Source of the DNA: a bacterium
Lineage (GTDB): Bacteria; Patescibacteriota; Minisyncoccia; Phycocordibacterales; Phycocordibacteraceae
DNA length: 64,000 nucleotides
Direction: 5' to 3'
NCBI GenBank assembly: GCA_023269085.1
Contig: JAHFML010000002.1
Location: forward strand, 1,266-65,265
The position numbers and the translations under genes are program-made. This document shows, one piece after another, positions 3,311 through 58,689 of this stretch. Under the pieces are notes generated by a model, which did not search any database, was not told the DNA's origin, and saw only the letters and a program-made list of their open reading frames with translations. Within the stretch, counting starts at the first letter, position 1. Each line of letters opens with the position of its first letter.

Positions 3311-3622
3311 CTATTTCACGAATGACGTGCAGAGGAGGAGTGCCGCGAGCAGGAGGACGAAGACCGCGAAGGTCCCGACGGTTTTTATGAGGAAAGAGAG
3401 CGCCTGCGGCTTGCTTCCTTCGAGGAAGAGGGCGAGCGGCTCATACACGAACAAGATGCCCATCACCGCCGTCGAGAGGACGAAGAGGCTCAGCATCGTC
3501 AGTGGCGCGAGCAGGGTGTCGGGTGTGCGTACCGCGATCGAGGAGGTCGTGTTGATGATCAAAATAATCGCGGCGATATATCCGAGCGCCATGAACGCGT
3601 TGAAATGTGGGTTTTTCAGCAT
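3311..3622 (-). CDS. small integral membrane protein
   Basis: Internal start MLKNPHFNAF at 3622; three hydrophobic helices. Confidence 0.35.
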   Translation of the reverse strand: MLKNPHFNAFMALGYIAAIILIINTTSSIAVRTPDTLLAPLTMLSLFVLSTAVMGILFVYEPLALFLEGSKPQALSFLIKTVGTFAVFVLLLAALLLCTSFVK

Positions 3623-3662
3623 GTCTCTAGTATAGCAGGCTACGGACGGGTATACTCTTCTT

Positions 3663-4046
3663 ATGACCGAAGGCGCTCCAAAATTCGAAAACCCTCTCCA
3701 GAGTAAAGAGGCGCTCAAACGGGAGAAGATTGCATTGGCTAAAGAGCTATTTGAAAGCCGAGAGAGCTTCTCTTTCCCCGGCGTTGGTCCAGACTCTTAT
3801 GCAGAATTAAAGGCTGGTGATGGGGAAGATCCTGGTTATACGACCCCTACTGATAAAATCCTGGAACGAATGCAGAACGAGGGGATGAAGATTGTCTTAG
3901 GGAAACATCCGGAAAGTGGAAATATTTTCGTTTTGCCATTCCAAAGTGATGACATTGAGAATGATTCAATTTCCCCGCGACACTTGCTAGTCGAGGGAGT
4001 AGAGGACGAGAAATTAAAAAGGCTTATCGCTTTGAGTAAGAGCTGA
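3663..4046 (+). CDS. hypothetical protein (AT-rich islet)
   Basis: ORF track; GC clearly below flanks. Confidence 0.4.
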   Translation: MTEGAPKFENPLQSKEALKREKIALAKELFESRESFSFPGVGPDSYAELKAGDGEDPGYTTPTDKILERMQNEGMKIVLGKHPESGNIFVLPFQSDDIENDSISPRHLLVEGVEDEKLKRLIALSKS

Positions 4047-4148
4047 TTAGAAATCAAAGCAGAAGCGTCGTGACGGATATAGTAGACGACATAATAGGCT
4101 ATCGCACTCGTCACCCAAGCGATGATTAGACAGTAAGAGCCACCCTCG

Positions 4149-4391
4149 CTACTTAGCACCTCCTGAACTTTCTTTGTATAAAGAAGTCACTATTAATTTA
4201 GCTAGTTTTTGCCTCTCGTCTTTCACATCCATACACCATGCGTGACCTCTTGTTGTAATAATCGCCTCAAGATATTTCTCTAGGTCTCGGCGCGAGTCGA
4301 TGATTGGTTTTGTGCACAAATATCTTTTTGCCTCTTGATAGTCACCAACATTCATTATCTCAATCCTTGATCGCTTCGGTTTATTCGTCAA
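4149..4391 (-). CDS. hypothetical 80-aa protein; 4-nt overlap with the upstream gene suggests an operon
   Basis: ORF track; ATGA overlap with 4388..4819. Confidence 0.4.
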   Translation of the reverse strand: MTNKPKRSRIEIMNVGDYQEAKRYLCTKPIIDSRRDLEKYLEAIITTRGHAWCMDVKDERQKLAKLIVTSLYKESSGGAK

Positions 4392-4819
4392 TGGCTATGC
4401 AGTACAAAATACGGCAGTTTGTCCATCCCCACATACGTAAACATCTCATAGTTTGCACGGCGAGCCGTTTCAGAAAGCTTGTAATTCGAGAGATTCTTCT
4501 TCGGCACAAAGGGATAAAAACGTATCTCTTGTTTCTGGCTCTCTTTTTCCTTCCATTTGAAATTAAGGAAGAGCGGCGGTGTCATGTATCCAGCCTTGAG
4601 AACTTTATTCATGATTTGCCAACCGGCACCGAAAACGACCGCCTTTGGTTTGTTCCGACTGGTCTTCACCTGTGCTCGGAAAGAGCATCCCGTGCACTGC
4701 ACATCAAAGAGGGGGTAATTCGGTGGGAGTATCATGAGGGATTTCCCACAATTCGGGCAAGGGACTAAAGCAACCACTTCGAGTTCTCCCGCATCGCCAA
4801 CTGGATGGTTGTTTGCCAT
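4388..4819 (-). CDS. hypothetical zinc-ribbon protein (CPNCG...CTGC), 143 aa
   Basis: Two Cys pairs spaced like a Zn ribbon; AT-rich; no family confidently recognised. Confidence 0.45.
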   Translation of the reverse strand: MANNHPVGDAGELEVVALVPCPNCGKSLMILPPNYPLFDVQCTGCSFRAQVKTSRNKPKAVVFGAGWQIMNKVLKAGYMTPPLFLNFKWKEKESQKQEIRFYPFVPKKNLSNYKLSETARRANYEMFTYVGMDKLPYFVLHSH

Positions 4820-4936
4820 GCAGGAAGTAGATCATTTATAGATCTCGCGCGCAATGTCCTCGAGCCTTCGTTTTTCTCTCAGTAGCAAAAAGCGGCCATG
4901 TTTCGTAAAAGTTAACAATTTCTAGTAGAGATACTT

Positions 4937-5614
4937 TTATTTTAAATATAAGAGCCGATATCTTTTATCGAGAGGTTGCAGCCTTACTGTCTCTACGATG
5001 TTTCGACGACCAGCATCAAAAGTAAGCCCACGTTGAGTGAGGGTGTCTCTAGCTTGTATTTTGGTTATGATTGGATATCCATTATTCAAATCTAATTCTG
5101 GGAAATCTATCTTCGGATGACCCTTTTCCCATAAGCTAAAGGCTTTTTCTCCTTTATAAACAAACCAAATCTTCGAAAAAGAAGAATCCATGGAAGCAGC
5201 GGATCTTTTTAATAAGTCTATTGTTACTGAATCAAATTCGAAAAAAGGGAACTCTAAAAGATCTGAATGCACAATTAACCACACCTCTTGCGCGCCACTT
5301 CTATCTGTGTACTCCTTAATACGTTTTTGCTTATTTTCTATAGTTTGTCGAAGCCAAATATGAGGTTCATTGGGTATGATTATTTCATAGGCTTTGCCAT
5401 GCTTTAAGCGTTTGATGGTCTTAGACCAAGACATTGCTCGTTCCATACTCAGATGACAGCAGTCTGCAGCTATTTTCTTACCGTCTATAGCGAACACCCA
5501 ATCAGGTTTATCAACAACATCAAGGTCGTCGATTACGCTAAACAAATTTTCTTTCAGAACAGATTTGACGGCATCTATGGCCAGTTGCTCGTTTTTAGTC
5601 CTTGTCTTGCGCAT
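4937..5614 (-). CDS. hypothetical protein 225 aa (AT-rich islet)
   Basis: ORF track. Confidence 0.45.
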   Translation of the reverse strand: MRKTRTKNEQLAIDAVKSVLKENLFSVIDDLDVVDKPDWVFAIDGKKIAADCCHLSMERAMSWSKTIKRLKHGKAYEIIIPNEPHIWLRQTIENKQKRIKEYTDRSGAQEVWLIVHSDLLEFPFFEFDSVTIDLLKRSAASMDSSFSKIWFVYKGEKAFSLWEKGHPKIDFPELDLNNGYPIITKIQARDTLTQRGLTFDAGRRNIVETVRLQPLDKRYRLLYLK

Positions 5615-5707
5615 GTTATTTATTTCTTTTTACGATACAGATCTGTTTTGATCTTGATGCGTAAGTCACATGGAGTAGTCCTATGTAAGCATTTGTTTGC
5701 AATAAAT

Positions 5708-6010
5708 TTACTTCTTATTTTTAAAATTCGACACGTTTTTCATTTCATTTACTTGTTCAATCAAATTATCTGCGAGAGTTTGATGAACTGACTCATAGAA
5801 TTTATCTCCAGGCTTACTTCTGTCTAATTCGTCTGCTTTTATCATAAGCCAATGAAGCCACTCCTTAGGAACCTCAACCATTTTCTGGGAATTTTTCCAG
5901 TCCTGGTAAATTAAAAATATAACACTTACTAATATCAAAATATTTAGAAGATTCATGAGTATATGTATACTACCGCTGAGCAGTATTTCTGTAAACGATT
6001 CAAACGACAT
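5708..6010 (-). CDS. small membrane-anchored hypothetical protein
   Basis: ORF track; one TM helix. Confidence 0.35.
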   Translation of the reverse strand: MSFESFTEILLSGSIHILMNLLNILILVSVIFLIYQDWKNSQKMVEVPKEWLHWLMIKADELDRSKPGDKFYESVHQTLADNLIEQVNEMKNVSNFKNKK

Positions 6011-6031
6011 GTCTCGTGTGGGTAGCCTTAT

Positions 6032-6283
6032 TCAAATTGATTTGCTCGCGACTAAAGCAAACTTCTTCTCTCGCCGCCAGCCCTTAAGCTCGGTCTCGCG
6101 CTGGCGCGCTTCGCGGAGCGTCGAGAAAGTCTCGTGATACAGGAGTGTCACAGGTCGACGGGTTTTAGTATAATGCGCGCCCCATTTTGAATCGTTATGT
6201 TGCTTCATCCTCCTCTCGAGATCATTGGTGCATCCGACATAGAGAGACTGGTCAGCGCATTCGAGGATGTAGGTGAAATACAT
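6032..6283 (-). CDS. GIY-YIG nuclease family protein (83 aa)
   Basis: YILECADQSLYVGCTNDLERRMKQHN matches the GIY-YIG motif block. Confidence 0.8.
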   Translation of the reverse strand: MYFTYILECADQSLYVGCTNDLERRMKQHNDSKWGAHYTKTRRPVTLLYHETFSTLREARQRETELKGWRREKKFALVASKSI

Positions 6284-6413
6284 AGTGGTATCATACCGCC
6301 CTTTCTCGAAGACTCGTCAGGGTCTTCGTCGCATTGAGTTTGAGAGTACAAGCAAATAACCACACGCGTGATTAGCGGGGGCCGAAGGCTCTGAGGAGCG
6401 GAGCGACGAAGAG

Positions 6414-9166: not shown

Positions 9167-9190
9167 GTAAGGTTCGACCTTACTCACTTG
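9159..9190. repeat. palindromic element family 2 copy (caagttGAGTAAGGTTCGACCTTACTCacttg) overlapping the prmC stop codon
   Basis: Near-perfect 32-nt palindrome; same core as copies at 46146, 46609 and 46874. Confidence 0.7.
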
Positions 9191-9260
9191 AGTGATGGTC
9201 TTGCGCGCGTCATAAAAAGATTGACCCCACGCAAGCGTGGAGTCGGGCGGCGATGGGCGG

Positions 9261-9494
9261 TCAAATGAGCTTAAGCTCGTTCTCGTAGTACACGTGAGAT
9301 GAGCCATTCGGAAAGGTTACTTTGCAAGACATGTAGCCTTCGTAGTAACCGAATCCGTTTCGGGTGACGCTACTTACCGTGCCCGTCTTGTTCGGAGAGT
9401 CCAAGACTTGCACCTTGTCGCCTGATTTAAGGCGGCTACTGAATTCCTTTTCGAGCCACTTCATAACCGCCTTCAAAAAACTTTTGATGTCCAT
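9261..9494 (-). CDS. hypothetical small protein (77 aa)
   Basis: ORF track; lower GC. Confidence 0.35.
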   Translation of the reverse strand: MDIKSFLKAVMKWLEKEFSSRLKSGDKVQVLDSPNKTGTVSSVTRNGFGYYEGYMSCKVTFPNGSSHVYYENELKLI

Positions 9495-9571
9495 GGCGCA
9501 CCTCTATAGGTTGGTTGAACTACGGAACTTCCTGCAAAGCACCATATCACATCTATTTTGTAAGTACAGCA

Positions 9572-10285
9572 CTATTTCACCCCGATGGAAGTAAGGAAGG
9601 TGGCGAGCTCGTCGCCCTCGATAGCCCGCCACTTGCCCGACTTCAAATCTTCGAGACGGATGTTGAGGATGCGGGTACGCTCGAGCTCGACGACGACATT
9701 GTGGAGCGCGGCGACCATGCGGCGGATCTGGTGCTTCTTGCCCTCGGTGAGGGTGATATTGAATGACCGCGGCCCCGTCTTGCGCACGAGGCATGGCCGT
9801 GTCATATAGCCCTCGATGTCGACGCCGCCCTCCATATACTTCTTGAAGCTCTCGCGAAGCGGCGTCTCCACGCGCACGCGATATTCCTTGTCATGAGCGT
9901 AGTCGGGGTTCAAGAGGCGATCGGTCACACGGCCGTCGTTGGTGAGGATCATGAGCCCGCTTGAATCCTTGTCGAGCCGCCCGATGGGGAAGACCTCGGA
10001 TAGCTCGGGCGCGAGCTTCACGCTCTGCTTCACATCCTTCTCGCCCTCTTGCGGCGAGTGCGTGATGACGCCGATGGGCTTGTTATAGGCGTAGTAGAGG
10101 AGCCTCTTGGGCGACGCCTTGCCGACCACCTCGACCTTGTCGGCCGCAAGCACCTTGTCGCCGAGCGCCGCAACGCGGCCATTCACGCGCACCGCGCCAC
10201 GCGCGATGATCTCGTCGGCGCCGCGCCGCGTGGCGAGCCCTTGGTGGGCGAGATACTTGTTGAGGCGCATCGGCCATGTGTCCAT
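9572..10285 (-). CDS. rluB: RluB/RsuA-family 23S rRNA pseudouridine synthase (true start MDTWPMRLNKY at 10285)
   Basis: S4 domain at N-terminus, catalytic GRLDKDSSGLMILTNDG motif. The longer ORF upstream of 10285 is antisense to the ABC-F gene and was rejected. Confidence 0.8.
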   Translation of the reverse strand: MDTWPMRLNKYLAHQGLATRRGADEIIARGAVRVNGRVAALGDKVLAADKVEVVGKASPKRLLYYAYNKPIGVITHSPQEGEKDVKQSVKLAPELSEVFPIGRLDKDSSGLMILTNDGRVTDRLLNPDYAHDKEYRVRVETPLRESFKKYMEGGVDIEGYMTRPCLVRKTGPRSFNITLTEGKKHQIRRMVAALHNVVVELERTRILNIRLEDLKSGKWRAIEGDELATFLTSIGVK

Positions 10286-10339
10286 AGGGGCACTATAGCG
10301 CGTTTTCCATTTTCTCCTAAAGTGCGGTACGGTGAGGCT

Positions 10340-11803
10340 ATGGCACGCGAAGAAAGTGTTATCCATTTTGAAGAAGTCTCGTTTGAATACGGGCACAACA
10401 AGCCTATTCTCGACGAGGTCGATTTCACCCTGCGCCGTGGGATGAAGATGGCGGTCATGGGCCAGAATGGCGCGGGGAAGTCGACCCTCTTCGCGCTCAT
10501 GACGGGCGCACTCACGCCAGAGAGCGGCGAGATCAACCGCTCGCACGGGATGAAGGTGGCGACCGCGGCGCAGGTGATCCCGCGCGAGAAGATGGCGCTC
10601 ACGGTGCGCGACTTCTTCTCCTCCTATTTCGATACAAAGGTGTATGACATCGACCCGAAGATAGACGCCGTGCTCGAGGTGGTCAATCTCGTCGGGCACG
10701 AGAAGTTGCACGACCGGCTCGTGCAGAGCTTCTCGGGCGGGCAACAGGCACGGCTCCTCCTCGCCTCGGCTTTGATCCAAGACCCTGACCTCCTCCTCCT
10801 CGACGAGCCGACCAACAATCTTGACACCTCCGGCATCGCGCATCTCACGAAGTTCCTCGTCGACTACGACAAGACCGTCGTCGTTATCTCGCATGATGCC
10901 GAATTCTTAAACGCTTTCACCACGGGCGTGCTCTATCTCGATGTCTTCACGCGGAAGGTCGAGCAGTATCCGGGCAACTATACCGATGTAGAGCGCGATA
11001 TCCTGATCCGTATTGAAAAAGAAAATCGCAAGAACGCCCAGCTCGCAAAGAAGATTCAGGATAATAAAGACAAAGCGAACTTCTTTGCGCAGAAGGGCGG
11101 CAAGATGCGTCTCGTCGCCAAGAAGATGCGCACCGAGGTTGAAGAGATGGAGGAGGCCAAGGTCGATGTGCGGAAGGAGGACAAAGTCATTCGGCCGTTC
11201 ATTATTCCCGCGCAAGCGGAGCTGAGCGGCACGGTTTTTTCTCTCACCTCCTACACCGTGCTCGGTGCGAAGGGGAAGCCGATCGAGAAGAAGGCGAATA
11301 TCAATTTGCGCAAGAATAATCACCTGCTCCTGCGCGGGCCGAACGGCATCGGCAAGAGCACCCTGCTCGAAGCGATCGCTCGTGGCACTGCCCAAGGCGC
11401 GACGCTCACCGAAGGCGTGAAGGTCGGCTACTATCGCCAAGACTTCTCGACGCTCGACTTCGGCGCGACCGTCTTTGATGCACTTATGAAGGTGATGGGC
11501 CAGCCGGACGAGAAGCGCTTACGCTCGGTCGCGGCGAGCTTCCTCATCACGGGCGACGTGATCGGCACCAAGATCGGGAGCCTTTCAGAAGGGCAGAAGG
11601 GGCTCGTCGCCTTCGCCTCCTTGGTGCTCGAGCGGCCGGGGCTCCTTATCCTCGACGAGCCGACCAACCATATCAACTTCCGCCACTTGCCCGTCATCGC
11701 GAAGGCGCTTTCCGAATTCGAAGGCGCGATGATTCTGGTCTCCCACGTCCCCGAATTCGTCTCCCAGATCCGCATCGACGACATTTTGGATTTGGAGAAG
11801 TAA
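10340..11803 (+). CDS. ABC-F family ATPase (two tandem ABC domains, no TMD)
   Basis: Two Walker A (GQNGAGKST, GPNGIGKST), two signatures (FSGGQQ, LSEGQKG), charged linker between the domains. Confidence 0.8.
   Translation: MAREESVIHFEEVSFEYGHNKPILDEVDFTLRRGMKMAVMGQNGAGKSTLFALMTGALTPESGEINRSHGMKVATAAQVIPREKMALTVRDFFSSYFDTKVYDIDPKIDAVLEVVNLVGHEKLHDRLVQSFSGGQQARLLLASALIQDPDLLLLDEPTNNLDTSGIAHLTKFLVDYDKTVVVISHDAEFLNAFTTGVLYLDVFTRKVEQYPGNYTDVERDILIRIEKENRKNAQLAKKIQDNKDKANFFAQKGGKMRLVAKKMRTEVEEMEEAKVDVRKEDKVIRPFIIPAQAELSGTVFSLTSYTVLGAKGKPIEKKANINLRKNNHLLLRGPNGIGKSTLLEAIARGTAQGATLTEGVKVGYYRQDFSTLDFGATVFDALMKVMGQPDEKRLRSVAASFLITGDVIGTKIGSLSEGQKGLVAFASLVLERPGLLILDEPTNHINFRHLPVIAKALSEFEGAMILVSHVPEFVSQIRIDDILDLEK
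11763..11803 (+). repeat. native 3' end of the ABC-F gene (...SQIRIDDILDLEK*) = repeat copy A
   Basis: 40 nt identical to 12942-12981; degenerate copy at 13503-13546. Confidence 0.85.
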
Positions 11804-11828
11804 ATTTCTCTATTAAATTACTATAATC

Positions 11829-12377
11829 ATGTCTGTAAAAATAACCTATTTCGTTCACGGTACTACGACAGACAACGAGAAGAATATTTCTTCGGGCTGG
11901 AAGGATGTTGAATTGTCTGAACTTGGCGTACAGCAATCTGTCGATTTGAAGAAGGAAACGGAAGACAAGGAATTCGATGTTGTTTTTTGCTCTGATCTAC
12001 AGCGTGCTCACAACTCAGCAAAACTCACATGGGAAGGCATCTATCAGATTATCCCGGATATGCGTCTCCGTGAATGCAATTATGGTGCACTGAATGGTGC
12101 CTCGTCAGATATTGTCGAGCCAATGCAGGAAGATGAGAGTGTCACAAAACCCTTTCCTGAAGGTGAAAGCTATGAGGACGTAAAGACTCGCGTTGCAGAT
12201 TTCCTCGTGTTTCTAAAGCAGAACTACGATGGTAAACATATCGCTATCGTTGCACATAAAGCACCACAACTCTCACTCGAAGTGCTTCTTAATGGTAAAA
12301 CGTGGAAACAGGCACTTGCCGAAGATTGGCGGAAAGAGAAGATGTGGCTCCCTGGTTGGGAGTATGAACTAAGATAG
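11829..12377 (+). CDS. histidine phosphatase (phosphoglycerate mutase-like) family protein
   Basis: N-terminal YFVHGTT catalytic His motif, HKAP second His region; lower-GC cassette. Confidence 0.6.
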   Translation: MSVKITYFVHGTTTDNEKNISSGWKDVELSELGVQQSVDLKKETEDKEFDVVFCSDLQRAHNSAKLTWEGIYQIIPDMRLRECNYGALNGASSDIVEPMQEDESVTKPFPEGESYEDVKTRVADFLVFLKQNYDGKHIAIVAHKAPQLSLEVLLNGKTWKQALAEDWRKEKMWLPGWEYELR

Positions 12378-12395
12378 TTGTGGTATAATCGTGAT

Positions 12396-12623
12396 ATGAA
12401 AAGCATCATCCAATTTCAAATCTCTGAAAGCGATGGGGGGTATGTTGCCGAGGGCATCGGCGTGCCGATTGTGACGCAAGGCGATACCCTTGATGAACTT
12501 ACCGCGAATATTCGCGAAGCGGTCGAGTTGTATGTCGAGGACGAAGATCTCGTTGAGCTTGGTCTTGTAAAATCTCCGTCGGTGCTGGTCAATTTCGAAC
12601 TTCCGGCGCTCGCACATGCCTAA
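12396..12623 (+). CDS. hicB: HicB-family antitoxin (UPF0150)
   Basis: Small acidic protein immediately upstream of, and overlapping, the HicA-like gene. Confidence 0.65.
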   Translation: MKSIIQFQISESDGGYVAEGIGVPIVTQGDTLDELTANIREAVELYVEDEDLVELGLVKSPSVLVNFELPALAHA

Positions 12624-12858
12624 ACCGAGAAGATTATCAGGAGCAGATATTATAAAGATCTTTGAGGAGTTTGGTTTTACTATCAAAAATCAGCGGGGAA
12701 GCCATATAAAACTCACGCGCAGTTGTCTCGGCACTACGCAAGCGTTACTCGTCTCGAATCACAAAGAGCTAAAGACGGGTGCAATCGTCGGTATATTCAA
12801 ACAAGCATTGCAATACATCCCAGAACCTGATCTTCGCAGTCATTTCTATTCAGAATGA
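12616..12858 (+). CDS. hicA: HicA-family mRNA interferase toxin
   Basis: IIKIFEEFGFTIKNQRGSHIKL matches the YcfA/HicA motif (GSH). Confidence 0.7.
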   Translation: MPKPRRLSGADIIKIFEEFGFTIKNQRGSHIKLTRSCLGTTQALLVSNHKELKTGAIVGIFKQALQYIPEPDLRSHFYSE

Positions 12859-12875
12859 AATTGCGCTTTGTGTGC

Positions 12876-12932
12876 AACCGCGTACCAAATCGCTCCTATA
12901 GGAGCGATTTGGTACGCGCATTGCGGACATAA
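12876..12932. repeat. imperfect ~55-bp palindrome (core cgcgtaccaaatcgctcc-tat-aggagcgatttggtacgcg) at the cassette boundary
   Basis: Perfect 18-bp arms plus imperfect outer arms, no U-tract; sits just before repeat copy B. Confidence 0.6.
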
Positions 12933-12940
12933 GTCTGTCG

Positions 12941-12982
12941 CCCAGATCCGCATCGACGACATTTTGGATTTGGAGAAGTAGA
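12941..12982 (+). repeat. duplicate copy B of the ABC-F 3' end (encodes ...QIRIDDILDLEK*)
   Basis: 40/40 nt identical to 11764-11803; stop is TAG instead of TAA. Confidence 0.85.
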
Positions 12983-13025
12983 GTCTCCATGTCGACCCAA
13001 AGGTAAGCGCTTGCTTAGTATGAAG

Positions 13026-13409
13026 CTATTCGCCAGAAGGAATATTCGATAAGCTATCTCGAATTCTTTTTTGGAAGACGGGAGTGTTCAATTTCTCAAG
13101 GAGAAGCCGCATGTCTTCTTTATTGAGAGGAAGGGTTTCGTCAAGTGGCTTGAGAAGCTCGTCGAGTTTTTCTAAAATCGGTGTCACAGTCTCTTTATCC
13201 ATTTCTTTTAAATCACTTCCAGCAAGGCCGAGCCGCTCAAGAAGTTTCCAAGCACCCACTCGATTTTCGTCTGCAGTGCGCGAAACCATTTCAACATATG
13301 TACGAATCAATCCAGTCGTTTGACTAACACGCTCGTCGAGTGATTTCTCAACATTCATTTCGATCCCTCCTTTGTTCGCTGGCTTAGAATCAAGATTTTC
13401 AATTCCCAT
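13026..13409 (-). CDS. hypothetical protein 127 aa (second cassette)
   Basis: ORF track; AT-rich; sigma70-like promoter (TTGATT...TAGTAT) upstream on the minus strand. Confidence 0.4.
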   Translation of the reverse strand: MGIENLDSKPANKGGIEMNVEKSLDERVSQTTGLIRTYVEMVSRTADENRVGAWKLLERLGLAGSDLKEMDKETVTPILEKLDELLKPLDETLPLNKEDMRLLLEKLNTPVFQKRIRDSLSNIPSGE

Positions 13410-13502
13410 ATAATTTGTTTATTTCTTGTAAGACACGAATCCGCACATATACTAGCATAATCCTAACCGTTCCTAATCAAAAAGAACTCGATCGGGGAAC
13501 AA

Positions 13503-13546
13503 TCTCCCAAATCCGCATCGACGACATTCTTGATTTGGAGAAGTAA
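13503..13546 (+). repeat. degenerate copy C of the ABC-F 3' end (ISQIRIDDILDLEK*)
   Basis: 3 mismatches vs copy A over 44 nt; retains reading frame and stop. Confidence 0.75.
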
Positions 13547-13578: not shown

Positions 13579-14955
13579 ATGAACCACACCACTTTCGAGC
13601 ACGAGGTTGAAGAAGCCTTTGAAGCGCCAGCGAAGGTGCTCGCAGGGGGCGTCGAGTTTGTCGAGCGAGAAGAGCAGAAGCTCGCCGAGGAGCCGATCGT
13701 CAAGGGTGCAGGGAGATATTGGAAGACGCTCGGGCCCGGCCTCACCACCGGCGCGGCCGACGACGACCCCTCGGGCATCGCGACCTACTCGCAGGCGGGC
13801 GCGAGCTACGGGCTCCAGCTCATCTGGCTCTCGCTCTTCACCTACCCATTCATGGCGACGGTGCAGGAGATGTGCGCGCGCATCGGCATCGTGTCGGGGC
13901 AAGGGCTCGCCGCGAATATCAAGAAGCACTACCCGGCGTGGGCGCTCTATGGCGCGGTCGGCCTCCTCTTCTTCGCGAATACGCTCAACATCGCCGCCGA
14001 CCTGAACGCGATGGCCGCCGCCGCACAATTGCTCGCGCCGAATATCGGCCTCGATCTCCTCGTCATCTTCTTCGCGCTCGTGAGCCTCGCCCTCCAGATA
14101 TTCATCCCGTATGCGCGCTATGCGAATTATTTGAAATATCTCACCTTCTCGCTCTTCTCGTATGCCATCGTTGCGCTCTTGGTACATCTCGACTGGGGCG
14201 CAGTCATCTATCACACCCTCGTCCCCTCGCTCTCCTTCTCGGCCGATCAGCTCTTCCTCGTGTGCGCGGTGCTCGGGACGACCATCTCGCCCTACCTCTT
14301 CTTCTGGCAATCGTCGCAGGAGGTCGAAGAGGATGTGAAGCGCGGCGAAACCTCGGTCGCGAGTCGTCAGGCACACGCGACGCCGCACGCGCTCCGCCGG
14401 ATGCGCGTCGATGTGTGGAGCGGTATGGCATTCTCCAATCTCGTCTCTTTCTTCATCTTCGCCGCGTGCGCGGGGACGCTCCATGCGCATGGCATCACCA
14501 ACATCGCGACGGCCGACCAGGCCGCGCTCGCTCTCAAACCTTTCGGCGATTTCGCCTTTCTCCTCTTCGCGCTCGGCATCCTCGGGACCGGGCTTCTCGC
14601 GATACCGGTCTTCGCGGGATCGACCGCGTATGCCTTCTCTGAGAGCTTCGGCTGGAAGGAAGGGTTGTATAGGAAGTTGAAGCAGGCCTACGCATTCTAC
14701 GGTGTCATCATCGTTTCGACCTTGCTCGGCATCATCGCGGTCTTCGCGCATCTCGACCCTATCAAGGGGCTCATTTATGCCGCGGTCGCGAATGGCGTCA
14801 TCGCGCCGATCCTCCTCGTCTTCGTCGTGCGGCTCTCGGGCAACAAACGCATCATGGGCGCTCATGCGAGTCGCCCACTCGCCGCCGCTCTCGGCTGGGC
14901 GACGATCCTCATCATGGCCGTCTCCGGTGTCGCCGCGCTGGTGACGCTGGGTTGA
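13579..14955 (+). CDS. mntH: NRAMP-family divalent metal (Mn2+/Fe2+) transporter
   Basis: GPGLTTGAADDDPSGIATYSQAG consensus, 11-12 TM helices. Confidence 0.8.
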   Translation: MNHTTFEHEVEEAFEAPAKVLAGGVEFVEREEQKLAEEPIVKGAGRYWKTLGPGLTTGAADDDPSGIATYSQAGASYGLQLIWLSLFTYPFMATVQEMCARIGIVSGQGLAANIKKHYPAWALYGAVGLLFFANTLNIAADLNAMAAAAQLLAPNIGLDLLVIFFALVSLALQIFIPYARYANYLKYLTFSLFSYAIVALLVHLDWGAVIYHTLVPSLSFSADQLFLVCAVLGTTISPYLFFWQSSQEVEEDVKRGETSVASRQAHATPHALRRMRVDVWSGMAFSNLVSFFIFAACAGTLHAHGITNIATADQAALALKPFGDFAFLLFALGILGTGLLAIPVFAGSTAYAFSESFGWKEGLYRKLKQAYAFYGVIIVSTLLGIIAVFAHLDPIKGLIYAAVANGVIAPILLVFVVRLSGNKRIMGAHASRPLAAALGWATILIMAVSGVAALVTLG

Positions 14956-14974
14956 TGCAACACCATGATTGAAA

Positions 14975-15003
14975 CAAAAAATCCGCCAGAGGCGGATTTT
15001 TTG
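14975..15003. terminator. bidirectional rho-independent terminator (aaaaaATCCGCCagaGGCGGATttttt)
   Basis: Perfect 7-bp GC stem flanked by A-run and T-run. Confidence 0.8.
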
Positions 15004-15088
15004 TGGGCGTTTGGCTACAGCGACTTCTCTCCGAGACAAACAAAACGCGCCGGCAAGCCGGCGCGGTGAAGCAGATGGAAGTGAAGGA

Positions 15089-15658
15089 TCAGTCGACGTA
15101 ATCCACACCGGAGTTAGCATCGCGCCACGCGAGATAATTTCCGTGAGCGATGGCGATACACGCGTCGGCGACCATGCTGGAGAGCATTCGGTCGTAATGT
15201 GATGCCAGACCCGAACAGGCCACGACGATGCCGTCTCGTTTGACGCCACCCCAATAGGGCGTGTCGCCCCGCAAGAGCAAATGCGGCACTGAGTTCGGGC
15301 CACCAAAGTTCCGGTCGTCCCAGAGCTGTAATGCTTTGCATTCGGCCAAGTCTTGGTAAAGGGCTTGCTTCGGCACAAGGGCGTCGCCGTTGGTGTATCG
15401 TGCAAACACGAACGGCACGATCTCGTGCGCAGGATAGGAACCCATCTTTTTCATTTCGGGCACGAGCATCAGTACGTGCATGTCAGGATTCCCCAGCGAG
15501 AACGTATCGAACACGAACTTCGCAATGTCCGCCATGAGGCGGCAGACAGTGGCTTGTTCAAGAAAAGCAGGGGTGATGGATTCGGGCATGGAAGCCTCCC
15601 TCAAGTTTTGGAACGGATTGTCCGGTGAGAGTAAAGCACGAGGTTTGTGGTGCGTCAA
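15089..15658 (-). CDS. hypothetical protein 189 aa (cassette inserted after mntH)
   Basis: ORF track; own terminator hairpin cgcgccggc-aag-gccggcgcg at 15043-15063. Confidence 0.45.
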   Translation of the reverse strand: MTHHKPRALLSPDNPFQNLREASMPESITPAFLEQATVCRLMADIAKFVFDTFSLGNPDMHVLMLVPEMKKMGSYPAHEIVPFVFARYTNGDALVPKQALYQDLAECKALQLWDDRNFGGPNSVPHLLLRGDTPYWGGVKRDGIVVACSGLASHYDRMLSSMVADACIAIAHGNYLAWRDANSGVDYVD

Positions 15659-15660
15659 TC

Positions 15661-15712
15661 GGCGTAGCGATCATCATGGCCATCTCCGGCGTCGCCGCGC
15701 TCGCGACGCTGG
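15661..15712 (+). repeat. diverged duplicate of the mntH 3' end (encodes ...IIMAISGVAALATLG*, cf. native ...ILIMAVSGVAALVTLG*)
   Basis: About 85% nt identity to 14899-14955, frame and stop retained. Confidence 0.7.
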
Positions 15713-15735
15713 GGTGAGAGCTGATTGCGGCTACT

Positions 15736-16680
15736 TTAATCGTGGTAAATAAATGTCGGGGTCATTGTGCCATCTGGATTTATTACGCCAACAGCAACGA
15801 CAATATCTCCCGTATGCAAGTCGGAAAAGGTAATAGATTTCCCGCGCGCGTCTTGTATCTGAGTAGTTGATGCCGTAAAGACTCCAAGGAGCTCTTTGTT
15901 TTCAGTGAGTATATAGATACCCTCCACTGGTTTAGTTACTCTCGTCTGTATTGTCCCTATAGCCGATTTCGTGGTGGCTGTTGATATTTGTCGTGATGGA
16001 GATGCTATATTCTGTTGCGATGCTATCGTTGTGGGTGCTGGTGCTCCTATCGAGGACTGTGGTATCGGAGCGGACACATGAGGAACAAGGAAGATGATGT
16101 AGAAGATCGCGCTGATAGCGAAAGTTATGAGCATAACCTGAAGCAAGAAGAATGCGCCCACTAGGATAACAAATATCTGCTCAAAGATATTTAGGTGTAT
16201 ATCCCAACCACGCTTCTTTGTCATATGGTAGACGAAGTAGTATGCAAGAGGGGGTGAGAAGAAACAAACAGCGGTGAGCAAGACACTGCCTTTTCCTATC
16301 ATGAAAAGGGTCAATGCCCAGACGCCTCTCATGATTGCGATGCCGAAGAGGATGCCAATGGGGAATAAGAAGAATATTATAAATGGTATGTGAAGTTTTC
16401 CGATGAAACCAATCAGCATCAATGGCAGCATGTTCTTCCAAAAGATGCCTCGAAACTCTCCCCATGCAAGTTGGCGAGTGACCGATTCGGGTCTCTGGGG
16501 TGATGCAATAGGAGATGAAATATTCATTGTTCCAGCAGTACCGCTCTCGAGAGAGGTGAATGCTTCGTCGATTGTGGCTTGAGTGTGACCAGATTTCAGC
16601 AAGGTCTCAATTATTTGCTCTTTTGTTTGACCCTGATTGAGCTCGTTCCTGATAAAATTTAAGAGTCCTAAATCGGCCAT
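15736..16680 (-). CDS. polytopic membrane protein, hypothetical (lower GC)
   Basis: ORF track; 5-6 TM helices. Confidence 0.5.
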   Translation of the reverse strand: MADLGLLNFIRNELNQGQTKEQIIETLLKSGHTQATIDEAFTSLESGTAGTMNISSPIASPQRPESVTRQLAWGEFRGIFWKNMLPLMLIGFIGKLHIPFIIFFLFPIGILFGIAIMRGVWALTLFMIGKGSVLLTAVCFFSPPLAYYFVYHMTKKRGWDIHLNIFEQIFVILVGAFFLLQVMLITFAISAIFYIIFLVPHVSAPIPQSSIGAPAPTTIASQQNIASPSRQISTATTKSAIGTIQTRVTKPVEGIYILTENKELLGVFTASTTQIQDARGKSITFSDLHTGDIVVAVGVINPDGTMTPTFIYHD

Positions 16681-16800
16681 GAGAGTATGGTTATTGTTGG
16701 TTAATTACTTAATAAGTATATCACGAGCAAACGGGGTATCTTGCATTCGTGGCTGTTTATTATATAGTAGGAGCACCAGCCCACGGGCTATTTTTATTTT

Positions 16801-21716: not shown

Positions 21717-21740
21717 CTAGCGATTCTATTATATACTACT

Positions 21741-22436
21741 ATGCATATGGAAGGAGCCCCGCACGAATCAACTCCCGGAAAGATCGAGATATCTCCTGAA
21801 TATCGGGTTGCGGCTACTCTCGAAGAACGGCAAGCCGCGCACACTTTGAGCGATCGGGTATACGAACGAGAAGAACTGAAACCGCAAAAGGAAGATCAAG
21901 ACGAGGATCATTATCCTTTTGAGAAATGGATCATGTCGCCCGCGACGCGAGTCTTCACGGCGTCGATAGAAGGTGAACTCGTTGCGACGATCGCGGTGGT
22001 GAAAGATAGCGAGATAGGGTTGCCGATGGATGAACTTTATAAAGAAGAATTGCAGACCTATCGCGATCAAGGCGATCGACTTTGTGAAGTATCGCAGTAT
22101 GCCGTTGATGCTGATCGGGTCGAGCAGGACATTCGAGAAGGGAAGATATCAGCCAGAAATCTTCCCGGGCCGCATCTTCTCGAAGTGGTCCTACAGTATG
22201 TCTTGCGCGAATCGATAGACCGTCTGTTTATTGTTTGTCGGCCCACGCATGCTAATTTTTATCGCTCAATGGGGCTCATACCAATCGGGGAAGAAAAATA
22301 TTATTCAAAAGTAAATAATGTTGCAGTCCCGCTCATGCTTGATGTACGAACGCTCACGGGGGAAGGGAAGGAAAGTCTCCCAAGAAGGATGCGAGCGCTT
22401 CTCGGCGCGAATATTCCGGATGATCTGCTAGCGTGA
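21741..22436 (+). CDS. GNAT-fold N-acyltransferase (FeeM / autoinducer-synthase-like)
   Basis: Weak family resemblance only; ORF track. Confidence 0.35.
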   Translation: MHMEGAPHESTPGKIEISPEYRVAATLEERQAAHTLSDRVYEREELKPQKEDQDEDHYPFEKWIMSPATRVFTASIEGELVATIAVVKDSEIGLPMDELYKEELQTYRDQGDRLCEVSQYAVDADRVEQDIREGKISARNLPGPHLLEVVLQYVLRESIDRLFIVCRPTHANFYRSMGLIPIGEEKYYSKVNNVAVPLMLDVRTLTGEGKESLPRRMRALLGANIPDDLLA

Positions 22437-22437
22437 A

Positions 22438-26142: not shown

Positions 26143-26167
26143 CATAAATCGTGATATAATAAAAAAT

Positions 26168-26956
26168 ATGAAGGAATTCCCAAGAGTACACCCGCCTGAA
26201 CTTCAAGGAATCGAGACAGGACCTTCTGTGACACCACAAGAAGGCCTCTCCTCGCGCGTAGAGCAGTTGATGACGGCTCTACAGGAACTAGCGGATCACG
26301 ATGACATGCCGTCGCATCTTAGCGAGAAGATGAAGCAGGAGTTGGCGAGGCACCATGTTCTACCAGAAGATGCGGGAACCATGCTCACAGCTATGCGAAC
26401 AAATAAGATAGACGCGCTCCATGACCAGCTCACCGGCTTGGCGAATCGTCGTAAGCTCGAAAGCGAACTGGAGAAATATCTCACGCGCGAACACAAACGC
26501 GCAGAGAAGTTGTTTGTCATGTACATGGATTTGAACAAATTCAAACAAATCAATGATACCTATGGACATTCGATCGGGGACAATCTCTTGAAGAATACCT
26601 CAAAGCACCTCAAGGAGGCGCTTCGCCCGGATGATATTCTCTCTCGTCTTGGCGGTGATGAGTTCGTGGCGCTCATATCCCTGTCTGATTCGGCGAGCGA
26701 GGAGCAGATTCGAGATGAGCTTGCCGGGATCACCGAGCGTCTCGAGCGCGCGGTATACACGGCTCGGTGTGAATTACGCGATGAACTCGCAGGTATGACA
26801 GGCTTGTCGAATAATCCTCCGCTTGTTGTGGGCGAGCAAGAGCGATATTTGAGTGCCGGATTTACCGAGGTAAGGTCTGACGATACTGCAAGCGAGCTTC
26901 TCCATAGAGCTGACGCTGAGATGTATAAGATGAAGCACGGCGGATCTGTGGTATAA
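26168..26956 (+). CDS. GGDEF-domain diguanylate cyclase
   Basis: RLGGDEF active-site motif, LTGLANRR start of GGDEF domain. Confidence 0.75.
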   Translation: MKEFPRVHPPELQGIETGPSVTPQEGLSSRVEQLMTALQELADHDDMPSHLSEKMKQELARHHVLPEDAGTMLTAMRTNKIDALHDQLTGLANRRKLESELEKYLTREHKRAEKLFVMYMDLNKFKQINDTYGHSIGDNLLKNTSKHLKEALRPDDILSRLGGDEFVALISLSDSASEEQIRDELAGITERLERAVYTARCELRDELAGMTGLSNNPPLVVGEQERYLSAGFTEVRSDDTASELLHRADAEMYKMKHGGSVV

Positions 26957-26993
26957 CGAGAGAGCACGGACCCTCGACAGGGTCCTGAAAGCA

Positions 26994-32184: not shown

Positions 32185-32217
32185 CTTATACACACCCCGC
32201 CCCTTTACCTCCCCCTC

Positions 32218-32228
32218 GGGGGGGGGGG
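32218..32228. repeat. G11 homopolymeric tract 48 bp upstream of the secreted-protein gene
   Basis: Counted directly: ccccctc + GGGGGGGGGGG + tacg. Confidence 0.8.
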
Positions 32229-32275
32229 TACGCTAGAGGAGTATCTCTTACTTCACTTCTAGCCACATTCTCGCT

Positions 32276-33115
32276 ATGCGCACGCTCCTCACCTCAACCC
32301 TCAAGATGTTCGTCGCCTCTTCTCTCACCCTCCTCGCCTTCTACGCGATCAACGCTTCTGCACAATCAGCCTGGACTCCAGCTCCAGCTAACGCTCCCTC
32401 AGGCAACGTGGCAGGCCCCCTCACCACGGGTGACGTGTATCAGATTCGCTCTGGTAATCTCGGTATGCAAGGAGCTTTGTTGATGGGAAATCAAACGGAT
32501 CAAGCACCGGGCGTATATTTTGCCCCCAATGGATATCCGTATTCATATATAGACAACAGCAAGGGAGATACTCGAATTGTGACACAGGATGCCAACGCCA
32601 ATGGGTATGGGAGTCTAAAATTTATAGTTAAGAATGGTGGCAATGTGGGGATTGGGACAGACAGTCCAAATAGTTCAAAAGGAACCAATGGTTATCTTGA
32701 CGCCAAAGACGTCTATCTCCGTGACGCCGGGAAGTGGGCGAGTGAGGTTGGTGGGAGTGGTTCGGGGGGACATTGGGCACCAGTTAATGGGAGAGAGATA
32801 TCTTGCACGATGAACGCTTTTAATTTGTGCAGACAAATGATAAATTCAATAACTTTCTTTGCGAAAGTCGAAAACAATAAACCGTACACAAGAATTGTTT
32901 CATCAAGTTCTTATGGAAGGAGCTATGCGCGTGATACAGGGTGGATTATTGGTACGACACAATCGTATAGCCCTGGAACGTGTGGATTTATAGGCTCGAA
33001 TCCTAGCATACTCATTTCGATGGGTTTGGATACGTATCCAAACCTTAGGGGTTCTTTTTCTGATGCAGGAGATGGTAGTGTTGAAACTCCCTGCTCCTCA
33101 AACTTCCCTTGGTAG
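32276..33115 (+). CDS. secreted or surface protein with signal peptide; C-terminal half AT-rich
   Basis: Signal MRTLLTSTLKMFVASSLTLLAFYAINASA; Gly/Asn-rich. Confidence 0.5.
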   Translation: MRTLLTSTLKMFVASSLTLLAFYAINASAQSAWTPAPANAPSGNVAGPLTTGDVYQIRSGNLGMQGALLMGNQTDQAPGVYFAPNGYPYSYIDNSKGDTRIVTQDANANGYGSLKFIVKNGGNVGIGTDSPNSSKGTNGYLDAKDVYLRDAGKWASEVGGSGSGGHWAPVNGREISCTMNAFNLCRQMINSITFFAKVENNKPYTRIVSSSSYGRSYARDTGWIIGTTQSYSPGTCGFIGSNPSILISMGLDTYPNLRGSFSDAGDGSVETPCSSNFPW

Positions 33116-33192
33116 ACTTGAGCTCTGTTCAGTTTGCACATACCTGGTGTGCACAATGAGAAATCCCGCGCAGGAGCGCGGGATTTCTCATG

Positions 33193-40359: not shown

Positions 40360-40381
40360 ATATGCGGTATACTACGAACAT

Positions 40382-42229
40382 ATGGACCCAGAACTGAAAC
40401 AAGAGACGATACTGTCGTTTAAGAGTCGCATATTTGTGGCGGCGGTGACTATCGCGGGAGTGATAATAGTTAGCACGATTGCATACATAGTTTTTATGTC
40501 GAGATCATCAACATCTGCCGACAATCTGCCATCTACAGTTTCAAATAATGTTGCGTCGAGCACCGAAGATAATTTCGCAATCACTCAAGATAAGCTGGTG
40601 GCGATACAGGCTGAGATGGGGACCACGACACCTGTTGCATTAGGAGATGCATACAATATTTTTGTGCAAATCGACAATTTTTCGAATGAAACGCTATATC
40701 ACGGCGTGACGTACCACGAAGATGGGATTATAACGGCCGGACCATATAGCGGTTATCGCCGTATACTAGCAAGTCTCGAACCAGATGGTCCGGTGGGCGT
40801 GAACGATTATGTAACTTTTGCAACAAAAGACTACCGCACGTTCATTTTGCATGCACCGACAAAAGGGCGAGTGCCAAACCCGAAGTTATTCAACACAAAT
40901 GTTGTTACAAAGGCGAATGCCTTCCCAACAAATTTCCCTGAGAGTATTGTCGCGAATAAAGATTTTGTCTTATATCGTGGAGATATTGTAACGGCGACCA
41001 GCTCAGCTCTTGGTCCAGAACTTACAAGTACGAGTCCTGGGTTGCGGTTCTACACGAATCCGGGGGACTATACACACAGCGACTTCGAGGCATATAAATT
41101 CGTTACTGGCGATACCAGTATCGTGGCGCGTGATGTCGAGAATGTTCGTTTCGTATATCACTTGGCTTTTTCTGACGCAAAGAAAACCGATTGGATGGTG
41201 GGGGATATCGGAATAAAACTTCCAGCAGAATCCGGTTTATATTCAAGTTATGGCAAAGCGCTTCCGCGGGGGTGCGGCGGCGGGGATACTGGCCAGAGTT
41301 ATGTGCTTACAAATAGTGCCAATAAAGAGGTACAAAGCAGTCCGATCGCGGAGGCGCACGGCGTAGACTTGTACCGCTTCGCAAACATAGACAATCCGTT
41401 CGTCAAAGCAGAATACGATACTAAATCGTCTCAAATAAACGCCTACTTACAACAGGATCCAAATAGCAGTAGTTGGCTCACCGCAGTGCCGGACTATACT
41501 GAGTATGCAAAGAAAACCCCGATTCTTTTGTTCAGAGATCCATGGAGCAGGTGGGTAGCGGTCGGTGAAATACAGTATCAATTGCCAGGAGGATGCGGGA
41601 AGCCGGTTATCTATCTGTATCCAGAAAAACCTACCAACGTATCAGTGAAATTTATGAATGTTCCGAAATTCAGCGTCGATATTCCAACCTATACGGATGA
41701 ATGGCATGTCCTTGCCGATAAAAATGGTAACTTGCACGATCTCCAACCAAATAAGACAGACTGCGCGAGGATTGACTTAACGGCCTTTGGTTCTGATTAC
41801 GCAAAACAGTCTTGTCTTGCAGGTGTGTATCCCTATCTCTATTGGGCTGGCGAAGCCGCGGGAACGTATCCCTCTCGAGAGGGCGGTTGGGTGATAAACA
41901 AGGAGGATATCGGAATATTCCTTGAATCGAAACTTCGCGAAATTGGTTTAAATGAGCAAGAACAACAAGACATGCTTTCGTTCTGGGTGCCAACGCTTAA
42001 GAAAGCAGAATCGCCTTACTACTCAATCTCGTTCTTTACGACGAAGCAGATGAATCATTTTATCCCGATGAGAGTAACGCCGTCTCCTAACAGCGCGTTG
42101 CGCATCTTCCTCGATTGGAAGCCACTCATGGCGCTACCGAGCAGTCTCCCAACACCACAAGTATTTGTTCCTTTTGAACGGAAAGGTTTTACGCTCGTCG
42201 AATGGGGCGGGCTCGAATACAATAAATAA
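40382..42229 (+). CDS. membrane-anchored extracellular hypothetical protein 615 aa (AT-rich islet)
   Basis: N-terminal TM, long Ser/Thr/Asn-rich ectodomain. Confidence 0.45.
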   Translation: MDPELKQETILSFKSRIFVAAVTIAGVIIVSTIAYIVFMSRSSTSADNLPSTVSNNVASSTEDNFAITQDKLVAIQAEMGTTTPVALGDAYNIFVQIDNFSNETLYHGVTYHEDGIITAGPYSGYRRILASLEPDGPVGVNDYVTFATKDYRTFILHAPTKGRVPNPKLFNTNVVTKANAFPTNFPESIVANKDFVLYRGDIVTATSSALGPELTSTSPGLRFYTNPGDYTHSDFEAYKFVTGDTSIVARDVENVRFVYHLAFSDAKKTDWMVGDIGIKLPAESGLYSSYGKALPRGCGGGDTGQSYVLTNSANKEVQSSPIAEAHGVDLYRFANIDNPFVKAEYDTKSSQINAYLQQDPNSSSWLTAVPDYTEYAKKTPILLFRDPWSRWVAVGEIQYQLPGGCGKPVIYLYPEKPTNVSVKFMNVPKFSVDIPTYTDEWHVLADKNGNLHDLQPNKTDCARIDLTAFGSDYAKQSCLAGVYPYLYWAGEAAGTYPSREGGWVINKEDIGIFLESKLREIGLNEQEQQDMLSFWVPTLKKAESPYYSISFFTTKQMNHFIPMRVTPSPNSALRIFLDWKPLMALPSSLPTPQVFVPFERKGFTLVEWGGLEYNK

Positions 42230-42230
42230 T

Positions 42231-42530
42231 ATGGACCCAGAACTGAAACAAGAGATAGCCGAGATACATGCGCTCGAGAAGGACAATCACCAAATGCTCC
42301 GCGCTATCCGCCGCGACCAGTGGTTCGGCTTCATCGGGCGGCTCATCATCTGGGCAATAGTGCTTGCGCTCCCGCTCTACTTCTATCAGCAGTATATAGA
42401 GCCCATCATCACGAAGATTGAGGGCGTATCAACGACAACGACCGCTACTATTAGTAAGTTTTCTCTACCGACGCTCCCATCTTCCGTTCAGGTACAAAAA
42501 CTGCTAAACTCTTATAAGATGGCGCCCTAG
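42231..42530 (+). CDS. small membrane protein sharing an identical first 25 nt (MDPELKQE) with the preceding gene
   Basis: atggacccagaactgaaacaagaga is identical at 40382 and 42231. Confidence 0.4.
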   Translation: MDPELKQEIAEIHALEKDNHQMLRAIRRDQWFGFIGRLIIWAIVLALPLYFYQQYIEPIITKIEGVSTTTTATISKFSLPTLPSSVQVQKLLNSYKMAP

Positions 42531-53858: not shown

Positions 53859-53882
53859 ATTGCTTTTAGATACGAAACAAGA

Positions 53883-58679: not shown

Positions 58680-58689
58680 ACCGAGTAGA

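Follow-up and report, generated by a model that had tools for sequence, protein, structure and literature searches.

Orphaned gene tails and foreign inserts at conserved gene termini in a Paceibacteria genome

A 64,000-nt stretch of a Paceibacteria genome (contig JAHFML010000002.1 of assembly GCA_023269085.1; hereafter the window) holds a gene for an ABC-F ATPase that is followed by two blocks of foreign DNA of low G+C content (GC), and behind each block stands an orphaned copy of the last codons of the same gene. The best reading of this array is that two successive foreign acquisitions at the ABC-F end left the orphaned tails. As the mechanism we favor successive 3′-end displacement, that is, a homology-anchored and illegitimately joined acquisition of foreign DNA, to which we give a probability of about 0.45. 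Comparable scars are present at two further gene termini in the window and at loci of other Paceibacteria.

Copies of the ABC-F tail and the inserts between them

The ABC-F gene (10340-11803, plus strand; 487 aa; two matches to Pfam ABC_tran, E 4e-46) is a conserved backbone gene with orthologues of 65–93% identity at ~165 Paceibacteria loci. A 40-mer from its 3′ end, CCCAGATCCGCATCGACGACATTTTGGATTTGGAGAAGTA, occurs exactly at 11763-11802 and at 12941-12980, and with 3 mismatches at 13506-13545; in a shuffle control, 0/100 shuffles contained any match. An earlier note made from the letters of the window had described both the exact recurrence and a degenerate third copy; both stand, with the position of the second copy corrected by one nucleotide (it had been placed at 12942-12981). 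After extension the repeat is 44–45 nt long, and the second and third copies (B and C) match the first (A) at 43/44 and 41/44 positions, respectively. Repeat search places copy A, the functional last 14 codons and TAA encoding VSQIRIDDILDLEK*, at 11759-11803; copy B, an orphan tail encoding VAQIRIDDILDLEK and ending in TAG, at 12937-12981; and copy C, the oldest orphan tail, encoding ISQIRIDDILDLEK and ending in TAA, at 13502-13546, all on the plus strand. The stop codon is the exact end of every copy. Copy C lies 32 nt upstream of the Nramp gene, where the end of ABC-F ancestrally stood.

Copies A and B are identical over the central 40 nt and differ only in a S/A codon and in the third base of the stop codon. 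Both differences are the allele of a 93%-identical relative, L090 (GTCGCC...TAG). Between copies A and C there are two synonymous changes (CAG>CAA and TTG>CTT) and a V>I change at the edge, and the longest perfect run is 18 nt. The tetranucleotide GTCG is common to both sides of the joint between insert 1 and copy B, as judged from the window sequence.

The Nramp/MntH gene (13579-14955, plus strand; Pfam Nramp, E 4.5e-83) is by synteny the ancestral downstream neighbor of ABC-F. By its ABC-F homologues the window belongs to Patescibacteria/Paceibacteria and is Kaiserbacteria-like. The closest deposited species are 82–93% identical in ABC-F, and in L002, L004, L008, L010, L021 and L093/94 the gene order is rluB (minus strand)-ABC-F-Nramp-BipA, which is the empty site, with a gap of 40–143 nt between ABC-F and Nramp. 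The earlier note had proposed a search for relatives in which Nramp directly follows ABC-F, and these are such relatives; together with the low GC and the three tail copies they bear out its attL-island-attR geometry with two stacked insertions. They also agree with its view that the inserted DNA regenerates the gene end, as each insertion left an intact tail on the gene and pushed the older tail downstream. Other relatives carry different cargo, namely ABC-F-[NTP_transferase, Pirin]-Nramp-[SDR]-BipA without a relic in L091/92, and, in L090 (93% identical; 88.7% nucleotide identity; same sample), a minus-strand 195-aa gene that abuts the ABC-F stop. Because relatives hold other cargo there without a relic, the ABC-F/Nramp/BipA junctions are hot spots of variable cargo. 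Among the ~165 ABC-F loci a duplicated ABC-F tail was found only in the window genome and in L074, the latter being the only case given by a survey of 80 GTDB species loci and 80 JGI metagenome loci.

An array of this kind could in principle be produced during assembly, if strain variants with different cargo were chained via the shared 40-mer; the source is a metagenome, and the 93%-identical relative with other cargo comes from the same sample. We consider this highly improbable, because independent contigs agree and the k-mer of the final assembly, to judge by the contig names (k141), far exceeds the 44-nt repeat. An independently assembled ENA contig is identical base for base over 17.5 kb, a second ENA contig from another sample has the same called gene order (gene calls, not DNA, were compared), and an NCBI contig of 175 kb encodes an identical ABC-F protein. 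Copies B and C, moreover, carry their own distinct variants.

Both inserts are foreign DNA. Their GC is 0.42-0.48 versus 0.59-0.65 in the flanks, and GC at third codon positions is 0.38-0.43 in the foreign open reading frames (ORFs) versus 0.75-0.85 in native genes. Insert 1 (11804-12936, plus strand; 1133 nt; GC 0.45-0.48) begins directly after the stop codon and is absent from relatives. It encodes a histidine phosphatase (11829-12377, plus strand; 182 aa; Pfam His_Phos_1, E 4e-28), a HicB-like antitoxin (12396-12623, plus strand; 75 aa; weak matches to Pfam HicB_lk_antitox/DUF1902, E about 4e-3 to 5e-3) and a HicA toxin (12616-12858, plus strand; 80 aa; Pfam HicA_toxin, E 1.8e-12). The HicB-like ORF lies upstream of hicA with an 8-nt overlap, so the HicAB arrangement is present, with a weak HicB match. 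The phosphatase and hicBA content given in the earlier note is accordingly found by Pfam as well.

Insert 1 closes with a perfect palindrome of 40 bp (12879-12918; an inverted repeat of 20+20 nt, 100% complementary) that lies 18 nt before copy B. The palindrome reported in the earlier note is therefore real over these 40 bp, and its extension beyond the 20+20 nt is imperfect. The hairpin has a 4-nt loop and a bulge-free stem, folds at -34.7 kcal/mol (z = -7.6) and is followed by no T-run. Insert 2 (12982-13501, minus strand; 520 nt; also of low GC) contains an orphan ORF of 127 aa (13026-13409, minus strand), which the public annotation gives as 110 aa (13026-13358). This ORF had no Pfam match, and no homologue besides itself was found among 5.8 billion proteins. 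The earlier note was right about this opposite-strand gene, and the promoter of its own that the note had assigned to it was not confirmed by a consensus scan.

Homologues of the phosphatase number 5999 in the candidate phyla radiation (CPR). The best matches are ~79–85% identical and are labelled as several different CPR groups, so that its conservation exceeds that of the housekeeping ABC-F. These genes are found in densely packed arrays whose neighbors differ each time (loci L082-L089), and at L143 a homologue again lies within a relic-flanked insert. The phosphatase seems to be a gene that is highly mobile in the CPR or under strong selection there. We rejected the idea that cassette 1 is a conserved mobile unit, as the phosphatase homologues occur in unrelated contexts.

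The scar at other gene termini

A second locus with the same geometry is formed by the end of the Nramp gene. The functional Nramp tail (14909-14955, plus strand) is followed by an insert (14956-15670, minus strand) that is absent from relatives in which BipA follows Nramp, and then by an orphan Nramp tail that matches at 42/47 nt (15671-15717, plus strand); both tails were located by repeat search. The insert contains an ORF of 166 aa (15089-15589, minus strand) and a terminator hairpin (~14975-15004). The Nramp relic differs from the functional tail by 3 synonymous changes and by V>I and V>A, and the two replacements restore residues of most orthologues (consensus MAISG..ATL). The earlier note had pointed to this geometry at mntH, correctly, and had argued from it for a dedicated mechanism; we found no support for a dedicated site-specific system acting in trans.

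A third locus involves the start of a gene. A perfect 27-nt repeat, made up of AT and eight codons (MDPELKQE), occurs at 40380-40406 (plus strand), where it is now the start of an inserted low-GC gene for a membrane-anchored protein of 615 aa (40382-42229, plus strand), and at 42229-42255 (plus strand), where it starts a small downstream gene (42231-42530). Two adjacent genes thus share their first eight codons (27/27), and the insert is almost exactly one ORF, running from position -5 to the stop codon. The sequence of the syntenic orthologue P0241 starts with MDTELKQEATMSFK, Met11 is the start in an alternative public call and the native start in orthologue P0241/P0395, and other members of the family start like the sequence from Met11 onward. 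Because the native Met11 is CTG at codon 11 in the window, translation of the 615-aa gene now begins at the duplicated host start. A lineage with an orthologue of only 85% identity has this insertion too; that the copies in the window nonetheless match at 27/27 positions points to gene conversion or to selection on the nucleotide sequence itself.

Outside the window, 2.1 Mb of sequence from other Paceibacteria loci were scanned, and four loci had such scars. At L068 a 43-nt gene-end repeat flanks a gene for a membrane protein with a Lycopene_cyc domain (PF18916). At L074 a 41-nt repeat of the ABC-F end flanks a 2.6-kb insert with a diversity-generating retroelement (DGR; reverse transcriptase and bAvd). 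L143 has a gene-start repeat whose relic runs on to 82 nt as a diverged allele (a 24-codon gene start), and L172 has a 40-nt repeat that spans the ABC-F start. Several of the cargo ORFs are fused across a repeat edge: the reverse transcriptase of L074 ends in the relic, a 225-aa ORF of L068 stops inside the relic, and the 615-aa ORF of the window and a 79-aa ORF of L172 start on the relic ATG.

The L074 element (9465-12141) is a complete-looking DGR, with a 229-aa high-GC ORF, bAvd and the reverse transcriptase, between ABC-F and a convergent rluB. Its duplicated ABC-F tail forms the last 14 codons of the reverse transcriptase, and the opposite strand encodes the C-terminus of rluB, a gene that overlaps the ABC-F tail in relatives. 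Because the relic holds the 3′ end of rluB too, a duplication of at least 35 nt would be forced at L074 by selection alone. Involvement of a DGR in the window was considered and rejected, as the variation among the copies is not adenine-specific, and no reverse transcriptase is present in the inserts of the window.

Taken over the whole window, the relics carry 7 synonymous and 5 conservative changes, against 20–31% synonymous changes expected at random. Our own binomial estimate from these counts, which are small numbers, gives p ~0.01 for the synonymous excess. With most of their differences synonymous or conservative, the copies are suggestive of tails of other functional alleles, and would not be local copies that decay neutrally.

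The repeats occur at unrelated genes and range from 27 to 58 nt in length. Their outer edge lies at the stop codon within 1–2 nt in 5/5 gene-end cases (ABC-F copies B and C, Nramp, L074 and L068). At gene starts the edge varies, from 2 nt before the ATG in the window to the ATG itself at L143 and 18 nt upstream at L172, and the inner edge coincides with no recognizable feature. Sharp edges and identical copies, as seen in A/B and in the 27-nt repeats, together with the 615-aa insert that is almost exactly one ORF, could be read as a long target-site duplication, in which an unrecognized machinery would make staggered cuts ~27–47 nt apart that are then filled in. The variable lengths do not fit this, and a stop-codon edge in every gene-end case is not predicted by staggered cuts; the allele-like differences of the relics and the diverged patch of the 82-nt relic at L143 also speak against it. 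In the Pfam scan no transposase domain was found, and there were no terminal inverted repeats at the cassette ends. A transposon with a fixed target-site duplication was rejected on these grounds, and we regard the duplication of a long target site by any machinery as very unlikely.

Flanking repeats were significant for four inserts at the three window loci, and 7/11 low-GC islands had none. The seven islands without repeats lie at 3320-6410, 9167-9571, 15718-16800, 21718-22437, 26143-26993, 32185-33190 and 57964-58700. Several of them stand beside tRNA genes (Gln, Ile, Ser), with no flanking direct repeat above chance, and their cargo comprises orphan ORFs, a GIY-YIG protein, a FeeM-like acyltransferase, a GGDEF protein and a GT2 glycosyltransferase.

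Two repeats of other kinds were met at loci outside the window. At L152 a sequence like a promoter or 5′ untranslated region occurs three times (1790-1833, 4118-4175 and 5764-5821; 44–58 nt), each time upstream of a different gene; it may be a duplicated regulatory region and not a gene terminus. At L013 (10549-12759) a 46-nt repeat, which runs from a stop codon over a terminator hairpin, brackets 540 nt without a clear ORF, and a tyrosine integrase lies 650 nt beyond the repeat. L013 probably represents a true att-type element, arranged differently from the scars of the window, and it was rejected as a further case of the scar because its repeat starts at the stop codon and covers the terminator.

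Displacement, integration and homologous exchange

The direct repeats bracket the inserted DNA in tandem, as attL and attR cores would, and site-specific integration has to be weighed first. In this account the tails would be the cores, and each cassette would be an integrase-less element, comparable to a cis-mobilizable element (CIME), a pseudo staphylococcal cassette chromosome (psiSCC) or a decayed island. Its attP, carrying a mimic of the ABC-F tail, would have been recombined by an integrase acting in trans, and the array would have grown by tandem accretion. Besides the tandem repeats at each insert, the common left boundary of copies B and C, with L074 close to the same point, is in keeping with this account. 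So is a repeat that reaches the stop codon with silent differences only, as is known for e14 and phage 21 at icd. Paceibacteria do have tyrosine integrases beside direct repeats (L013), and a large serine recombinase is encoded in the window.

The searches for an integration system returned little that fits. As the earlier note had stated, neither ABC-F cassette encodes a recombinase domain by Pfam scan, and no integrase was found in or near the array; a tyrosine integrase was absent from the 48 window ORFs scanned, with ~20 mostly native, high-GC ORFs left unscanned. The arms just inside the repeats share nothing, no motif being common to the two cassettes there, and the cassettes are not conserved units: neither was seen at another ABC-F tail, and the tail cargo at L074 is the unrelated DGR. 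No integrase-bearing element was found at the ABC-F tail among the ~165 lineages. A phage vector was rejected, as no viral contig with an ABC-F-tail mimic or the phosphatase was found. The fusion of cargo ORFs across the repeat edge and the islands without repeats, which are the majority, count further against integration. On balance we judge site-specific integration somewhat unlikely.

The only recombinase found was the large serine recombinase (52320-53984, minus strand), 39 kb away, which the earlier note had named as a possible mobilizer in trans. It is flanked by a 28-nt inverted repeat of its own (52333-52360 and, as the reverse complement, 53989-54016; 27/28). The left arm of this repeat starts within the 3′ end of tRNA-Ser(cga), a tRNA gene that the stop codon of the recombinase overlaps; the arrangement spans 52252-54016. 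Similarity between the 28-nt repeat and the ABC-F tail was not significant. Its repeats being inverted and unrelated to the tail, and the similarity not significant, we rejected the serine recombinase as the mobilizer of the cassettes, and that part of the earlier note is without support. Adjoining the recombinase, an inverted repeat of ~120 nt (54130-54255 and 56018-56140) brackets a 1.8-kb AT-rich segment (GC 0.29-0.38) with two ORFs without family match (54556-55041 and 55045-55680); the segment 54130-56140 looks like an invertible segment or switch.

The earlier note had also suggested a comparison of the palindrome with the attC sites of integrons. The stem is perfect, with no extrahelical bases, no R′′/R′ cores and no RYYYAAC/GTTRRRY pair, and we rejected an attC or integron assignment. 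Cassette 2 had no structure comparable to the palindrome. Neither IntI nor attI was found: what stands upstream of the first cassette is ABC-F itself, and no Phage_integrase match was obtained in the scanned ORFs. An Rfam scan of the window returned only tRNAs, tmRNA and RNase P.

Successive 3′-end displacement would proceed without an element-encoded recombinase. The donor would be a related Paceibacteria lineage with the cargo directly after its ABC-F stop codon, such that its own ABC-F 3′ end would be included in the transferred DNA. On one side, homologous recombination would take place inside ABC-F; on the other, an illegitimate joint would form ~45 nt before the resident stop codon. Because the joint would precede the resident stop by ~45 nt, the resident tail would be pushed downstream and not destroyed. 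The first event would have left copy C beside Nramp and the second copy B, with copy A as the newest and current gene end. The 40-bp palindrome, at 18 nt from the joint, could conceivably have been the break site in the donor fragment. What we infer in this scheme is how the donor was arranged, that homology inside ABC-F served as the anchor, and that the other joint was illegitimate.

Several features would follow from such a displacement. The outer edge of the repeats would lie at the stop codon because conservation between diverged alleles ends there. A terminator within the cargo downstream of Nramp is expected if that cargo natively adjoined the donor's Nramp gene. Because 7/11 low-GC islands are without a flanking repeat, the repeats look like an occasional by-product of gene gain. 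Displacement would likewise account for the allele-like differences between copies, for the ORF fusions, for cassettes with no recombinase and no conserved ends, and for cargo found both with and without relics. The empty sites and the alternative cargo that relatives have at these junctions also speak for it.

Other observations weigh against displacement. The left ends of copies B and C fall on one and the same codon, within ~1 nt of each other, and the L074 relic starts within 3–6 nt of that point, a coincidence that random illegitimate joints would be expected to produce only ~10% of the time. The identity of copies A and B (40/40) and of the gene-start repeat (27/27) is not needed for displacement, and such perfect identity is a better fit to short-homology or site-specific recombination or to gene conversion. 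Three scar loci in 64 kb, compared with four in 2.1 Mb, make the window ~25-fold richer, a hint of some activity specific to this lineage. A donor genome with either cargo immediately behind ABC-F was not found. Tails that look like those of other alleles would also result if the functional copy itself had undergone substitutions. In experiments, homology-facilitated illegitimate recombination usually deletes recipient DNA and does not duplicate it.

That 64 kb contain three such loci, that B and C have their left boundary in common, and that the younger repeats match perfectly also led us to consider an active system acting in trans in this lineage. It would insert cassettes of one to three genes precisely at resident start or stop codons and duplicate 27–47 nt, so that the target gene survives. 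Such a system could be an integron-like capture that uses host gene termini and not attC/attI, driven by the serine recombinase or by an unrecognized enzyme. We consider it unlikely.

The perfect repeats (A/B at 40/40 and the gene start at 27/27) are also what RecA-type exchange would give. A circularized foreign fragment with ~27–47 nt of an orthologous terminus would enter by a single Campbell-type crossover, and the array would arise by unequal crossing-over between strains that carry tail repeats. The outer edge would then mark the limit of coding conservation, no recombinase would be required, and the shared boundary of B and C could descend from a single original scar. Perfect repeats of 40 and 27 nt reach or slightly exceed the shortest length at which homologous pairing is efficient. 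The origin of the first circle with a gene-tail fragment is not explained by this route, and copy C matches at only 41/44 positions with no perfect run above 18 nt; homologies this short recombine very inefficiently in the bacteria tested. We hold RecA-type exchange to be distinctly unlikely.

Relation to known systems and meaning for gene gain

Displacement of 3′ ends has precedent in the arrays of Rhs, contact-dependent inhibition (CDI) and type VI secretion system (T6SS) genes, for which homology-facilitated illegitimate recombination was put forward (Kirchberger et al. 2017, PMC5361080); Jackson et al. 2009 is cited in that paper for the same displacement scheme. At Rhs/T6SS loci, sequential displacement is proposed to leave strings of orphaned 3′ ends (PMC5361080). 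In that scheme, as would be the case here, the conserved 5′ portion of a gene anchors the DNA that comes in, which brings a new 3′ end with cargo, the old 3′ end is shifted downstream, and no integrase takes part. Their displaced tips, however, are long variable toxin domains with immunity genes, whereas here a conserved housekeeping tail of 14 codons is displaced, with cargo that has no relation to the gene, and every relic is ~45 nt long.

Gene-end targeting is also known from integrative elements. In E. coli, the 3′ end of icd is the site of prophages e14 and 21, which are more than 20 kb long, carry their own integrase and duplicate a gene end of 165 nt. As here, they supply a substitute gene end with mainly synonymous differences and leave the original end as a downstream pseudo-copy; the present inserts, by contrast, are of 0.5–1.1 kb, integrase-less and stacked. 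SCCmec and psiSCC elements occupy the 3′ end of rlmH (orfX), and CIMEs and integrative and conjugative elements (ICEs) accrete at the 3′ end of fda in Streptococcus thermophilus. These share with our array the tandem elements separated by repeats that hold a conserved gene end, and some of their units are recombinase-less and served in trans. They differ in having a cognate recombinase (ccrAB or an ICE integrase) and conserved sites of 15–30 bp across many strains, neither of which was seen here.

Exchange without a recombinase is known from the minimal mobile elements of Neisseria and from additive flexible genomic islands, in which whole-gene cassettes swap in one slot by homologous recombination in the flanks. 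Different cassettes in the same slot between conserved genes are common to both systems; to our knowledge, minimal mobile elements have not been described as leaving duplicated gene termini. Integron cassettes resemble the present ones in being small, mostly promoter-less and stacked head to tail with one to three genes each, and one cassette here ends in a palindrome. They differ from them in IntI, attI and attC, which are lacking here, where the separators are copies of a host gene tail. The scar is best filed as a variant of a known recombination scar, in a lineage whose gene gain has been little studied.

CPR genomes are tiny and tightly packed, and the route by which they gain genes is poorly understood. 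The scars described here record single acquisition events base by base. Foreign genes have been slotted in at conserved gene ends with the end regenerated, such that nothing is broken despite the scarcity of intergenic space. If the tails were att sites of a system mobilized in trans, this would be a new mechanism of cassette capture. If homology-anchored illegitimate joining is the true mechanism, it would allow recombinase-free turnover of cargo between conserved genes, and an orphan gene terminus would be a simple signature by which such events could be dated and counted across the radiation.

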